DNA from: Patescibacteria group bacterium
GTDB lineage: Bacteria > Patescibacteriota > Microgenomatia > UBA8517 > UBA10165
Assembly: GCA_038062025.1 (NCBI GenBank)
Contig: JBBTXW010000006.1
Coordinates: 1-49,593 of the forward strand
Length of the DNA stretch: 49,593 nucleotides
Direction: 5' to 3'
Shown here: piece after piece, positions 14,753 to 17,382 of the stretch
Numbering within the stretch: position 1 is the stretch's first letter
How the letters are laid out: the number at the start of each line of letters is the position of its first letter
Notes under the pieces: generated by a model
Told to the model about the DNA's origin: nothing
The model's database searches: none
Seen by the model: the letters and a program-made list of their open reading frames with translations, nothing else
Program-made: the position numbers and the translations under genes

Positions 14753-14764
14753 GATGAAAAATAT

Positions 14765-14792
14765 GCAAAAAACAAGGCGCCTACTGGCGCCC
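14765..14792 (-). terminator. Hairpin + U-tract immediately upstream of the rplC start (terminator/attenuator-like)
   Basis: Minus strand: AGGGCGCC-AGUA-GGCGCCUU, then GUUUUUUGCAUAUUUUUCAUC-AUG. Confidence 0.55.
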
Positions 14793-14866
14793 TATTTCCA
14801 AGAGCCCTTCGGCACACAAACATTAAGTTTCAGGAAGAATTTCTCTTTACCTGCACGTTGGAGATG

Positions 14867-14875
14867 AGTATACCA
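14867..14875 (-). promoter_or_regulatory. Candidate extended -10 promoter for the rplC operon (TGGTATACT)
   Basis: The minus strand reads tctGGTATACTcatc. No good -35. Lies about 108 nt upstream of the rplC ATG. Confidence 0.4.
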
Positions 14876-14879
14876 GATT

Positions 14880-15638
14880 TTGAGCTCCACACGCAAGATT
14901 CGTGCAGTAGCGAACTTCTTAACAGGGAGAACCTACTCCGGCATCTCCTGGTTGTATCCAGAAGACACAAAGAAATATTTTTGTGATAAGTTAACAGAAA
15001 TTCTACCTAGATATAAAATGGTGCTTGATGCCTGGGTAATCTGCAATAATCATTACCACTTGCTTTTGGGTGTTTCGGACGGAAAACAAATACCGAAGTT
15101 TACTAAACACCTTCATGGGTCAACGGCACACTACATAAGGCAACACATGCCTTCAATGGTAATCAGTGACCATCAAGTACTTACAAGGGAAATTACTCCT
15201 TGGGACAAAAGGCAAAAGATCAGTTTTCTTAAAAGAACAGGAGAATTTCAGCGCGGATTAAAATCCGCTAATATACAGGGTGTAGTGAAACCTACTGGCG
15301 TAGTAGCGCAATTTATTGCGCCGGATAGTGCAATAGCGAAATTTATTTCGCGCCATCCGGAGATTAATGACCCAGAAGTGCTTGCGCTTCTTTCTGTAAA
15401 AGATCCACCCATTTGGTATCAGTACATGGATCATGTGATAAGAGACGAAGAAGATTACTACAAACACTTAAACTACATCCACCAAAATCCAGTAAAACAC
15501 GCCTATACTGATAAACTGACAGACTACAAATGGAGCAGTATTCATACCTGGATTGAGGATAAAGGTAATGACTTCATATCGGATTGCTTTAGAACATACC
15601 CGATCATAGATTTTGAACCTACAGCAGGCGCAGACTAA
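14880..15638 (+). CDS. HUH Y1-type transposase-like protein (COG1943 / RAYT / IS200-like), possibly degenerate
   Basis: HUH motif in VICNNHYHLLLGV and a Tyr-helix motif LNYIHQNPVKHAY. TTG start is uncertain. An in-frame segment at 15250..15360 consists of REP-like hairpins. Confidence 0.6.
   Translation: MSSTRKIRAVANFLTGRTYSGISWLYPEDTKKYFCDKLTEILPRYKMVLDAWVICNNHYHLLLGVSDGKQIPKFTKHLHGSTAHYIRQHMPSMVISDHQVLTREITPWDKRQKISFLKRTGEFQRGLKSANIQGVVKPTGVVAQFIAPDSAIAKFISRHPEINDPEVLALLSVKDPPIWYQYMDHVIRDEEDYYKHLNYIHQNPVKHAYTDKLTDYKWSSIHTWIEDKGNDFISDCFRTYPIIDFEPTAGAD
15253..15360 (+). repeat. REP-like hairpin module, copy inside the RAYT-like ORF
   Basis: gcggatt-aa-aatccgc+taat (15253..15272), gcgcaatttattgcgc (15306..15321), and gcgaaatttatttcgc (15336..15351). 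The last is nested in ccggat/atccgg (15321..15360). Confidence 0.7.
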
Positions 15639-15684
15639 AGTCTGCTAATGCACTGTTTGCGTGTAATAGCGAAATTCATTTCGC
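15630..15684 (+). repeat. REP-like hairpin module, 3' flank of the RAYT-like ORF
   Basis: gcagact-aa-agtctgc+taat (15630..15649), with the ORF's TAA stop in the loop, followed by gcgaaattcatttcgc (15669..15684). Confidence 0.7.
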
Positions 15685-15691
15685 GTCAAAC

Positions 15692-15743
15692 AAAAAGAGC
15701 CCTCAGCAAATTCATCTCGAAGCGAGACAAAAAGTGAGGGCTC
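15692..15743 (-). terminator. Intrinsic terminator of the G+C-rich orphan
   Basis: Minus strand: GAGCCCUCA...UGAGGGCUC (9-bp outer stem with an inner UCUCG/CGAGA stem), followed by UUUUUGUUUG. Confidence 0.55.
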
Positions 15744-15776
15744 AAGAATTCAAAAAGGGCCGAGTGCTCGAGAGTT

Positions 15777-16589
15777 TTAGGGCTCGACTGGCAACTTCCG
15801 GGAGGCAGCAACGCCAATGTTCGGGCCCGGCCCGTCATCCCAGCCGTCGACAACGACCCTGTACGGATCGCAGCTGCCGACATCGACGCGGAAGCCGTAA
15901 GACGTGGTATCAGAAGTCCGAGCATAGCGCTCGCGGTTCAAGTACGTCCTGGACGTCTTGTAGCAAAAGACGTCTTTTCCAGCCTCTTCAACCGCGGTTG
16001 GTGCCTCGTACTCGACCGGCAGCATTGAAAGCTGTTGGTCCCAGGTTTTGCTCTCAGAGCCAGGCACAATGCTTTTGAGAAGCAGGTACCAGCGAAGCCT
16101 GATGGCGACGTCGGTTGCGAACGGCTGTTTGCGATACCAGGCATCATCCGGAGAGGAGAAGAATTTTGGTTGCTTATTGCTCGGATGGAATATGTTCAGC
16201 TTCATGAGCGATAGCGCCTCGCCTTCGACCTCCGATAGCCCCAAAAACGCGAAGTGCGTGTCCTTGGCCTTCTTGCCCCGAACGAACGGGCAGGGTGAGT
16301 TCAGGACCTCTGCGTTCCATGGGAACTCGGGCACTTCAGGAACAGTGATGCCGTAGTAGGTCTGCCACTCCTCGGCCCCGAAAAAGAACTTGCCCATGAT
16401 ACCCCGCGCTTGGGCCACAGAATCCGGCTGAGCCGAATCTGTGCCGATGATGGCCCCGACCACGAGAGCTAAGCGATCACCGTTTCCGCGGACTTCTCTT
16501 AGGTGCTCTCTAGTTACCCCGCATCTTCCTAAAACTTCGAGGGTTTCATGCCACTCTGAGGCTGGAATCTGAGTTGTAAGGCTCACCAC
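15777..16589 (-). CDS. Hypothetical protein (270 aa), G+C-rich orphan
   Basis: GTG start preceded by AAGGAGAG. Long ORF in a segment where my hand counts give 66/100 and 61/100 G+C (15801-15900, 16201-16300), against 36/100 at 17001-17100. I recognise no motif. Confidence 0.6.
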   Translation of the reverse strand: MVSLTTQIPASEWHETLEVLGRCGVTREHLREVRGNGDRLALVVGAIIGTDSAQPDSVAQARGIMGKFFFGAEEWQTYYGITVPEVPEFPWNAEVLNSPCPFVRGKKAKDTHFAFLGLSEVEGEALSLMKLNIFHPSNKQPKFFSSPDDAWYRKQPFATDVAIRLRWYLLLKSIVPGSESKTWDQQLSMLPVEYEAPTAVEEAGKDVFCYKTSRTYLNRERYARTSDTTSYGFRVDVGSCDPYRVVVDGWDDGPGPNIGVAASRKLPVEP

Positions 16590-16702
16590 TTTAGGCTCTC
16601 CTTAGATTTGGTTTGGGCTCTTTCCGAGTTTGTCGGAACTCTCCCATAGGCTCGAACTCTGTCGAGAACAGGCACACTCTACGTTTTGAATGTACAGTGC
16701 GT

Positions 16703-16732
16703 ATTGTACTATATTATGAGGCTTTTAGTCAA
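16703..16732 (-). promoter_or_regulatory. Candidate promoter of the G+C-rich orphan (TTGACT-18-TACAAT)
   Basis: -35 at 16732..16727 and -10 at 16708..16703. Lies just downstream of the retropepsin-like stop. The ~110-nt leader has hairpins CUCGA/UCGAG and UUCCGA/UCGGAA. Confidence 0.45.
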
Positions 16733-16740
16733 GCTCGCTG

Positions 16741-17148
16741 CTATTTTGGGGTAATTTCAAACTCGCTTTTGGATTTATCAAAACAAACACGGAATTTCTC
16801 GAAGAATCCTACTTGTCCTAATAAGCCGAATGGGAAGTCATGGTCATATGAAAAACCAACCTCTGTTTCGAAACTATGTGTACCTATTATTAACGTAACT
16901 TTGTGGGCAAAGTATTGCATTATCTCTTTTGACACCCCTCTGTACAAAACGCGTGATCCTGACTTCACGTCTATTCCAATGGCTTCCCCAACAACCGCAT
17001 GGAAAATACAATTTGTTGCACCCGAATCTACTAACACAACGTAGTCTGCGAATAATTTTTGATTTAGTGGATTTACCAGGTGAAGTTTAAAAGCTGGATG
17101 CTCTATGGTTTCTTCTCCAGATCCATACTTTCTGTAATCAAACTTCAT
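16741..17148 (-). CDS. Retropepsin-like (clan AA) aspartic protease family protein
   Basis: VLVDSGATNCIF carries the D-S/T-G-A active-site signature in a ~135-aa single-lobe protein. Confidence 0.65.
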   Translation of the reverse strand: MKFDYRKYGSGEETIEHPAFKLHLVNPLNQKLFADYVVLVDSGATNCIFHAVVGEAIGIDVKSGSRVLYRGVSKEIMQYFAHKVTLIIGTHSFETEVGFSYDHDFPFGLLGQVGFFEKFRVCFDKSKSEFEITPK

Positions 17149-17354
17149 TAAAGAATGGCGGGGATTAGATTGCCATAATCTTCTACCACAAATGTAACTA
17201 CCGGATTTTTTATCCCCTGTTTCTTAGCCTCTTCGATGGCCTCATTTGGTGTGCGAGCTGCAGCGATAACATGCGTCTCGTTCTCATCCATTGCAACCCA
17301 CATTCCAGCATAGTTTGGCGTTAATATCTTTGTAAAGTCGATATTGGTTACCAT
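17148..17354 (-). CDS. Small DUF5678-like protein
   Basis: 68 aa. YAGMWVAMDENETHVIAAARTPNEAIEEAKKQG resembles my memory of DUF5678. Its stop overlaps the protease ATG by 1 nt (TAATG). Confidence 0.5.
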   Translation of the reverse strand: MVTNIDFTKILTPNYAGMWVAMDENETHVIAAARTPNEAIEEAKKQGIKNPVVTFVVEDYGNLIPAIL

Positions 17355-17382
17355 TACTAATTATTGCACACCAAGTCAAAGT

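Follow-up and report, generated by a model that had tools for sequence, protein, structure and literature searches.

We analyzed a 49,593-nucleotide stretch of DNA from a Patescibacteria group bacterium (contig JBBTXW010000006.1 of assembly GCA_038062025.1, a metagenome-assembled genome, taken in its entirety), hereafter called the window, in which the S10 operon is split between the ribosomal protein genes rpsJ and rplC. On the minus strand, rpsJ (S10; positions 17383 to 17694, identified by the call of its open reading frame, or ORF, and by the Pfam family Ribosomal_S10) is the last gene of a tuf-rpsJ unit, and rplC (L3; 14054 to 14752, minus strand) is the first gene of the rplC-rplD-rplW-rplB... 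unit. The 2.6-kb gap between them contains four ORFs of 68, 135, 270, and 252 aa, and the contig carries the NCBI locus tags AAB599_00480 and AAB599_00485. From the rpsJ side, the ORFs encode a DUF5678 small protein, a retropepsin-like aspartic protease, a homolog of the variable proteins that are the targets of diversity-generating retroelements (DGRs), and, on the opposite strand, an HUH protein resembling transposases of the RAYT type (repetitive extragenic palindrome [REP]-associated tyrosine transposases).

A first-pass annotation of this DNA had described the split operon, the end of rpsJ at 17383, the start of rplC at 14752, and four ORFs of different histories between them, all of which was borne out. 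The signals that it quoted were also present: for the 270-aa gene, a TTGACT-18-TACAAT promoter, a AAGGAGAG Shine-Dalgarno sequence with a GTG start, and a hairpin followed by U's after the stop codon; for rplC, the extended −10 element TGGTATACT and a hairpin followed by U's. The gene families that it named largely hold, with the DUF5678 match lying above the Pfam cutoff and the matches to Asp_protease_2 and REP_Tyr_transpos below theirs. Two of its interpretations did not survive, namely that an insertion had split the operon and that the 270-aa gene was an orphan.

Assembly support and strain variation

The loci compared with the window are designated by L numbers. L036 (GCA_964366515.1) is a sister species whose rpsJ and tuf are 98% and 94% identical to those of the window, and L003 and L008 are Blackburnbacteria loci. 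The layout of the window recurs identically, with zero indels over all junctions, in L002 (GCA_964361765.1) and in L037 (Hainich groundwater, ERZ1292627); L001 spans only the tuf-rpsJ-DUF5678 junction. An assembly or binning chimera might account for the patchy composition of the gap and for the divergent tracts that distinguish the strains. However, three independent assemblies agree at each junction without indels, and the flanks align base for base with those of relatives that lack individual inserts. A chimera is therefore very unlikely, and we regard this explanation as hardly credible.

The differences between strains are clustered. Window and L002 differ at 33 positions in 20.7 kb, 26 of which fall within an 89-nt allelic patch inside the variable-protein gene (16295 to 16383, minus strand). 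The comparison with L037 revealed the same patch plus 32 differences in rpsJ, mostly 3 nt apart, and none in 7777 to 16294. Divergence thus reaches approximately 29% over the 89 nt and 16% over approximately 200 nt of rpsJ (17392 to 17593), and a third tract in tuf (18644 to 18689, relative to L002) holds four differences over 46 nt, with kilobases of identity separating the tracts. This pattern suggests homologous recombination among co-occurring strains, or mixing of strains in the consensus built by the assembler.

A conserved promoter and leader upstream of rplC

A putative promoter of rplC, TTGCGT and TGgTATACT separated by 18 nt, is located at 14867 to 14896 on the minus strand and shares bases with the opening codons of the RAYT ORF. 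It is followed by a leader (14753 to 14866, minus strand) consisting of a 5′ hairpin (CAGG..AAGA/TCTT..CCTG) and a terminator-like hairpin (GGGCGCC-AGTA-GGCGCC, stem at 14799 to 14768) with a U-run that stops about 14 nt short of the ATG. Three features upstream of rplC are common to the window, L036, L003, and L008, namely the −35/−10 pair, a conserved stretch beginning with CAACGTGCAGG, and the GGGCGCC..GGCGCC hairpin with U's, which ends 5 to 25 nt before the rplC start codon. Conservation of the promoter extends to L036, L003, L008, and 21 metagenome loci.

For the comparison of spacers we retrieved 80 metagenome loci through rpsJ. All loci of the Candidate Phyla Radiation (CPR) type, with rpsJ 59 to 80% identical to that of the window, have the same promoter-leader architecture. 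In more distant genomes (rpsJ ≤64% identical), rpsJ and rplC are mostly separated by the textbook gap of 2 to 90 nt, with no leader. The terminator stem shows compensatory change in three of its seven pairs, and the 5′ hairpin is formed by lineage-specific stems (GUGGUU/AACCAC, GAGGU/ACCUC, AGUGAUU/GAUCACU, and CAGG/CCUG). An nhmmer profile of the leader yielded 33 matches in 1.07 Mb of fetched DNA. Twenty-nine of them precede rplC by 5 to 48 nt in the same orientation, and the other four are at contig ends where rplC is cut off. In all, 30 related loci share the rplC promoter and the approximately 100-nt leader with its hairpin and U's, found only upstream of rplC, which upholds the first-pass proposal that rplC has a promoter and leader of its own. 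Rfam gave no match to the rplC leader at the gathering threshold and nothing relevant at E values up to 10, nor did it match any other leader or hairpin of the locus.

In the 30 nonredundant loci, the distance from the rpsJ stop codon to the −35 element is approximately 0 in nine and 458 to 4,594 nt in 21. The promoter thus directly follows rpsJ in nine loci and unrelated cargo occupies the same point in 21, which argues against an insertion as the cause of the split. In addition to the genes found in the window, the spacer holds tlyA-like rRNA methyltransferase genes (six loci), a SpoU-type methyltransferase gene, genes for ATPases, and unknown genes; a PIN/RHH pair (RHH, ribbon-helix-helix) is present in L118 and HicAB in L008, and in L003 the variable-protein gene stands alone. 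The tlyA-like gene, coding for an rRNA 2′-O-methyltransferase, is the commonest occupant (L042, L043, L055, L059, L081, and L088); the SpoU-type gene is in L073.

These comparisons indicate that the split between rpsJ and rplC is ancestral and predates the cargo, and that the interval from the rpsJ stop codon to the rplC −35 element is an insertion-tolerant site across the lineage. Because the rplC promoter and leader are conserved with and without cargo, the genes from rplC and rplD onward most likely constitute a transcription unit of their own in this lineage. In this Microgenomates-type CPR bacterium there would be two units, tuf-rpsJ and rplC-rplD-..., the second driven by its own sigma-70 promoter. 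The leader, ending in a terminator-like hairpin, would attenuate transcription under ribosomal-protein feedback; by analogy with L4 regulation, it is probably an attenuator.

Separation of rpsJ from rplC has precedents. In the str-operon layouts of cyanobacteria, plastids, and archaea, rpsJ follows tuf, apart from rplC. The window resembles them in that rpsJ is grouped with tuf and not with rplC, but here rpsJ and rplC stay neighbors and their boundary is the cargo site. As to the leader, the E. coli S10 leader, which mediates L4 attenuation, and the L4 leader of Archaeoglobi, which sits upstream of rplC (PMC7247131), are likewise conserved structured leaders with a terminator-like hairpin before an rplD-containing operon. 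Unlike the E. coli S10 leader, that of the window precedes rplC rather than rpsJ, and it differs from the known r-leaders in having no sequence or Rfam similarity and only a putative ligand.

The 270-aa gene is a homolog of DGR target genes

The 270-aa gene (15777 to 16589, minus strand, GTG start; MEK7521266.1, locus tag AAB599_00480) encodes a protein with an N-terminal helical part and a conserved C-terminal domain of approximately 205 aa. Its sequence is that of cluster member P0123. The protein had zero matches in the Pfam and NCBIfam family scans. It is nevertheless no orphan, as a word-index search retrieved 127 homologs, none with a Pfam domain and those with named sources nearly all from CPR bacteria, and an exhaustive profile search returned 3,605 representative clusters at E values up to 1e-3. 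A scan of species-representative genomes located 30 family loci.

In 11 loci (ten from the scan plus L005), genes for Avd and a reverse transcriptase (RT) are found approximately 500 nt downstream of the homolog. In all 11, the last 107 to 120 nt of the gene are repeated in the spacer, and the mismatches are almost all from A in the spacer to any base in the gene. Judged by sequence, such pairs are the defining signature of a DGR, namely a template repeat (TR) and a variable region (VR). In the family alignment, variable positions are interspersed through the final ~40 residues, which terminate in ...ASRK(F/L). Proteins of 800 to 1,900 aa (P0271, P0316, P0307, and P0309) contain one to six copies of the ~205-residue domain. 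In Pfam scans of these large relatives, the only families recognized were those of the partner regions (P-loop GTPase, TPR, and HEAT), and no Pfam model covers the domain itself, which follows those regions; this placement fits a ligand-sensing module.

In L003, L008, and L036, too, the variable-protein gene occupies the rpsJ-rplC interval, with 44 to 63% protein identity to the window. The sister species L036 carries a full DGR there, the gene order being tuf, rpsJ, DUF5678 (73 aa), protease (140 aa), a first variable-protein gene (VP1), RT, Avd, TR, a second variable-protein gene (VP2), and rplC, with RT on the opposite strand. VP1 is 63% identical to the window protein. The L036 TR has 21 mismatches to the VR of VP1 and 20 to that of VP2, every one at a template adenine, and P0002 and P0124, from the 90% cluster of the L036 protein, differ almost exclusively in the variable region. 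These differences suggest that the L036 DGR is or recently was active. The RT was called as two ORFs both in L036 (4320 to 5479, overlapping) and in L005 (7692 to 9870, adjacent); the break falls just before an IGNLTSQ motif, and the other loci have a single frame. The split could reflect a frameshift, a sequencing error, or a real division of the gene.

Over most of its length the window gene resembles VP1, and it is framed by conserved signals. A predicted sigma-70-type promoter, TTGACT-18-TACAAT (16703 to 16732, minus strand), has equivalent hexamers before L036 VP1 and the L003 gene. The 5′ leader that follows (16590 to 16702, minus strand), containing the AAGGAGAG ribosome-binding site, is 81 to 93% identical to that of VP1, in contrast to just 34 to 53% for the N-terminal coding region. 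Many other family members (L005 to L034) have a different long conserved upstream hairpin, GAGACGAGTATTT...AAATACTCGTCTC. Such leaders and hairpins may act as RNA regulators of DGR target genes. Downstream of the gene, the hairpin GAGCCCTCA..TGAGGGCTC with its U-run (15692 to 15743, minus strand) is a candidate terminator and/or DGR target hairpin. An equivalent hairpin with U's follows the stop codon in most of 35 family loci, and that of the window aligns with those of L003, L008, and L036.

The VR-equivalent segment of the window (15794 to 15904, minus strand, ending in ...GCCTCCCGGAAGT) aligns over 111 nt to the L036 TR, from which it differs at 31 positions. These comprise 19 of the 32 template adenines and 12 of the 79 other bases (Fisher's exact test, P = 9.6e-6), and the window VR therefore still bears the footprint of adenine mutagenesis. 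A tblastn search with the L005 RT and Avd (E value, 1e-4) found neither in the 49.6-kb window, and no second copy of the segment 15760 to 15960, as a TR would provide, was found there; TRs were likewise not found in the L003 and L008 loci. Informative sites in the 3′ flank of the gene alternate between VP1 type and VP2 type, and loss of RT, Avd, TR, and VP2 by recombination between direct-repeat targets was considered. The window gene is most likely an orphaned DGR target with a fixed VR. Its C-terminal ~37 codons would be a former VR, once rewritten by adenine-specific mutagenic retrohoming; the machinery would since have gone from the locus, leaving a gene for one fixed ligand-binding variant.

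DGR hypermutation was also considered as the cause of the 89-nt allelic patch and rejected. The changes in the patch are not adenine specific, many are synonymous, and similar tracts occur in rpsJ (L037) and tuf (L002), with 8.5 kb of identical sequence in between.

The gene might alternatively be an active target, diversified in trans by a DGR elsewhere in the genome, in the manner of the remote targets of Treponema and Legionella-type systems. Such action is conceivable because the VR 3′ end (GCCTCCCGGAAGT) and the downstream hairpin are intact; the lack of a local TR in L003 and L008 might make it the rule of the clade, and nonadjacent targets are documented for other DGRs (PMC5758913). On the other hand, the window, P0001, P0122, and P0123, four sequences that come from three assemblies, have the same VR, although variation is present elsewhere in the locus. 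Moreover, 12 of the 31 mismatches are at nonadenines, so that the cognate TR would have to differ from that of L036. We thus consider continued diversification unlikely, though worth keeping in mind, and prefer the orphaned target.

The likeness to known DGRs (Bordetella phage Mtd, Treponema TvpA, and Thermus TaqVP) includes the C-terminal VR of ~110 nt, the conserved VR 3′ end followed by a hairpin, the TRs of relatives that differ from the VR at adenines only, with Avd and RT adjacent, and the full cassette at the same site in the sister species. The window differs from those systems in having no RT, Avd, or TR; its domain belongs to no Pfam family and has no significant structural match to their C-type-lectin targets; the gene lies between rpsJ and rplC under a promoter of its own, and it is 10 to 20 points higher in G+C than the host and than the family's own RT. 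A CPR-restricted DGR clade has been described (Roux et al. 2021, PMC8144416). Wu et al. (2018) noted five CPR DGRs with ribosomal protein genes between their parts (PMC5758913), an association that the present locus shares. To this it adds an exact position, from the rpsJ stop codon to the rplC promoter, a general insertion site, and a degraded version.

Predicted fold of the variable protein

The AlphaFold2 model of the 270-aa protein (pLDDT 91.3) consists of an N-terminal helical bundle followed by a mixed alpha/beta domain, with the VR on the last strands. No 19-residue window exceeds a hydropathy of 1.02, and neither a membrane segment nor a classical signal peptide was apparent. A profile search of PDB sequences with the protein found nothing. 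One result weighs against the DGR interpretation: the C-type-lectin fold expected of DGR targets was sought and no match was found in PDB or BFVD at an E value of 1e-3 (best PDB E value, 1.3; best BFVD E value, 7.5e-3). C-type-lectin-like entries, i.e., mannose-receptor CTLD4, snake-venom lectins, TaqVP, and FGE-like proteins, were among the weak matches only.

High G+C content is a trait of the family

The G+C content of the 270-aa gene is 0.57, compared with approximately 0.42 in the flanks, and reaches 0.67 at third positions, compared with 0.32 to 0.45 in neighboring genes. High G+C content recurs in the family across hosts of 0.33 to 0.60, beside A+T-rich Avd and RT genes. Most homologous genes in 33 loci have 0.57 to 0.61, with flanks from 0.33 to 0.60. 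In the DGR cassettes (L005 to L031, leaving out the low-G+C outlier L016), the target gene has 0.57 to 0.61, the TR spacer 0.46 to 0.50, and Avd plus RT 0.34 to 0.46, usually below the host average. On the coding strand, A (0.219) and T (0.212) are nearly equal in frequency; therefore, the high G+C content does not reflect depletion of adenine. G+C richness is a family trait and no argument for recent foreign origin.

The DUF5678/retropepsin-like pair

The DUF5678 gene (17148 to 17354, minus strand, 68 aa) matches Pfam PF18929 with an E value of 1.9e-7, above the family cutoff. The protease gene (16741 to 17148, minus strand, 135 aa) follows with an overlap of 1 nt, the two sharing one base in TAATG, as the first-pass annotation had stated. 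The protease has an invariant D41-S42-G43 and matches Asp_protease_2 with an E value of 1.4e-4 and 22.9 bits, the Pfam cutoff being 24.3. Foldseek comparison of its AlphaFold2 model (pLDDT 92.5) with the PDB gave as best match the RVP domain of Ddi1 (7d66; E value, 3.6e-4; TM scores, 0.60/0.65), along with Rickettsia APRc (5c9d) and the proteases of XMRV, EIAV, FIV, and SIV (E values, 3.6e-4 to 2e-3; probability 1.00; TM scores, 0.55 to 0.68). The model thus predicts a retropepsin fold, with a DSG motif. The protease family is small, with 21 word-index matches, and both lineage names given are CPR.

In every context examined, comprising six places and four kinds of site, the DUF5678 gene directly precedes that of the protease. 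The window and L036 have the pair in the rpsJ-rplC spacer, and L068 has it there on the other strand; in L118 it lies between fusA and tuf, and L120 has two copies away from ribosomal genes. The genes overlap by 1 or 4 nt outside the window. By its organization and distribution, the pair looks like a mobile two-gene module of toxin-antitoxin-like architecture. It would probably be transcribed by read-through from tuf-rpsJ, and in a working model the protease would be held in check by, or would process, its DUF5678 partner.

As in type II toxin-antitoxin modules, two small overlapping genes move together with the small partner upstream, and the same spacer houses HicAB and VapBC-type pairs in L008 and L118, respectively. 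The module differs from them in that its larger partner is a retropepsin-like protease, with the fold of Ddi1 RVP and Rickettsia APRc. To our knowledge, retropepsin-like aspartic proteases are not a toxin family. No known antitoxin fold was identified in the pair, and our literature search returned nothing relevant on DUF5678 or on retropepsin toxin-antitoxin systems.

The RAYT-like gene and REP-like hairpins

The RAYT-like HUH gene is on the plus strand (14880 to 15638, a 252-aa ORF); in other assemblies it is called as 206 aa from an ATG at 15018. Its opposite orientation and the presence of REP-like hairpins agree with the first-pass description. The protein matches Y1_Tnp (E value, 6.9e-7) and, in two stretches, REP_Tyr_transpos of NCBIfam (NF047646; 75.1 bits, cutoff 80). 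It contains the motifs HYH (aa 58 to 60) and YIHQNPVKH (aa 199 to 207), of which H58, H60, and Y199 show no variation across the family alignment, and both motifs align with those of the best solved relative, E. coli TnpA-REP (PDB 4er8; E value, 1.1e-5). We retrieved 77 homologs, most of the closer ones of 230 to 275 aa, and all lineage names given are CPR. PHROGs yielded transposase-type matches only. In place of the family N terminus M..HRPPHIHPD, the window protein has SSTRKIRAVAN, encoded where the ORF overlaps the rplC −35 element, and the gene is thus N-terminally degenerate and probably decaying.

Aligned to L003, L008, and L036, the RAYT gene is a clean extra segment between the terminator of the variable-protein gene and the rplC −35 element. 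The segment is bordered on the left by a REP-like hairpin, GCGAAATTCATTTCGC, next to TAATA (15661 to 15688, plus strand), and on the right by a partial copy, GAAGTTCGCTACTGC (14904 to 14918, minus strand), located by alignment to L003. The borders read GCGAAATGAATTTCGC-TATTAC on one side and GAAGTTCGC-TACTGC, the partial copy, on the other. At the homologous place, L003 has just one hairpin. The segment may have been gained here or lost elsewhere. The window contains four copies of the REP-like hairpin within 3.7 kb, compared with 0.01 expected by chance, with 6-bp stems as DNA.

Three palindromes within the RAYT ORF (15253 to 15268, 15304 to 15322, and 15334 to 15352, plus strand) are in frame and encode GLKSA, AQFIAP, and AKFISR. 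Such palindromes make up the length-variable linker between the HUH and Tyr motifs of this RAYT family, with AQFIA(R) encoded by GCGCAATTTATTGCGC, AQFIA(R) or AKFISR by GCGMAATTTATTKCGC, and GLKSA by GCGGATTAAAATCCGC. Homologs have one or more motifs each of the AQFIAR and LKSA types in the linker, and the gene thus appears to have taken up REP-like hairpins of its own. The same hairpin is found just upstream of tuf in the window (18939 to 18957) and in L003 (4198 to 4213), which has no RAYT nearby and in which another such hairpin follows the variable-protein gene. The hairpins may therefore predate the RAYT copy, or they may serve some role themselves.

The gene resembles known RAYTs (E. coli TnpA-REP, 4er8) by its HUH motif, the Tyr helix YIHxNPVKH, the short hairpins with G+C stems nearby, and its single copy in the window. 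It differs from them in scoring under the NCBIfam cutoff, in its linker of ~85 residues made of in-frame palindromes, in the loss of the conserved N terminus, and in having only four hairpins.

An ancestral split with a tolerated cargo site

Taken together, the data point, with reasonable confidence, to an ancestral split of the operon with a tolerated cargo site, which in the window holds a toxin-antitoxin-like pair, an orphaned DGR target, and a decaying RAYT. The three occupants are the DUF5678/protease pair, the variable-protein gene with its own promoter, leader, and terminator, and the opposite-strand RAYT gene. Every component is of a known kind, in an unusual but lineage-typical place. 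Several points weigh against parts of this interpretation. The promoters, the read-through, and the attenuation are predictions; the toxin-antitoxin-like character of the pair is suggested by architecture and mobility, the match of the protease in PADLOC being weak (PDC-M52B; E value, 1e-3); the activity of the L036 DGR is deduced from VR differences, and its RT is called as two overlapping ORFs; and the search for DGR components covered 49.6 kb of the genome, such that a DGR elsewhere could still act in trans.

A different account, along the lines of the first-pass annotation, would be that a recent foreign mosaic island broke an intact S10 operon and brought in a new, G+C-rich orphan gene of undescribed function. 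The four genes do differ in composition and phyletic spread, and the RAYT gene is species specific and bordered by repeats. Nevertheless, the variable-protein gene is at the same site in L003, L008, and L036, the rplC promoter and leader predate all of the cargo, and G+C richness is common to family members in hosts of every G+C content, with thousands of relatives. The annotation had itself named an old, lineage-specific layout as the alternative to an insertion, and such a layout was found in part: the variable-protein gene recurs in those three loci and the DUF5678/protease pair in L036, while the RAYT gene alone is limited to the species of the window. The recent-island account is largely refuted, and we consider it highly improbable.

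The occupants of the spacer might instead have been recruited for a translation-linked function, with the variable protein, and perhaps the protease pair as well, acting on or with the ribosome or its factors. This would fit the presence of the variable-protein family beside ribosomal protein genes (rpsJ and rplC in four species, rplU in L005) and of the DUF5678/protease pair in the rpsJ-rplC or fusA-tuf spacer of four species. However, rpsJ or rplC adjoins a family gene in just two of the 30 species-level scan loci, and the linkage of the family to rpsJ, rplC, and rplU is confined to L003, L005, L008, and L036. In L120 the pair lies apart from ribosomal genes, and the heterogeneous cargo of other lineages fits a permissive site better. 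Recruitment for translation is thus improbable. A more ambitious proposal would combine several of these elements: the boundary would be a selected expression platform, the DGR protein and the protease module would be coregulated with translation or act on it, the fixed variant would be domesticated, and the leader would represent a new class of attenuator. Although we judge this combination doubtful, if it were true, the occupants could be, e.g., sensors or effectors in host or phage conflict, and the rplC leader would have arisen with the rewiring.

Under the favored interpretation of a tolerated cargo site, a highly conserved gene string contains a standing insertion point, and the conserved rplC promoter and leader would make the break harmless, which matters for synteny-based annotation and for the binning of CPR genomes. 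A false orphan is removed, and the ~205-residue domain, with approximately 3,600 clusters and no Pfam model, deserves curation. The two sister species present a full cassette and a lone, apparently frozen target at the same base-level site, a direct view of DGR decay that bears on how often hypothetical genes of CPR bacteria are fossil DGR targets. The new elements here are the exact site, its nature as an ancient general cargo point, the matched pair of species with a full DGR and a remnant, and the family-wide G+C anomaly. The locus also supplies two candidates that await curation, namely the rplC leader, which matches nothing in Rfam, and the DUF5678/retropepsin module.

The tuf promoter and the fusA-tuf gap

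The predicted tuf promoter (window positions 18996 to 19053) is near consensus (TTGACA-17-TACAAT, 11 of 12 positions). A hairpin with U's (19015 to 18996) directly follows it before the tuf start, the same design as upstream of rplC. The gap between fusA and tuf contains an ORF of 130 aa (19090 to 19482, plus strand; G+C content, 0.51, and 0.56 at third positions), which had no family match in Pfam, NCBIfam, PADLOC, or PHROGs and is identical in L002. In relatives, other small genes fill this gap, among them the DUF5678/protease pair of L118.

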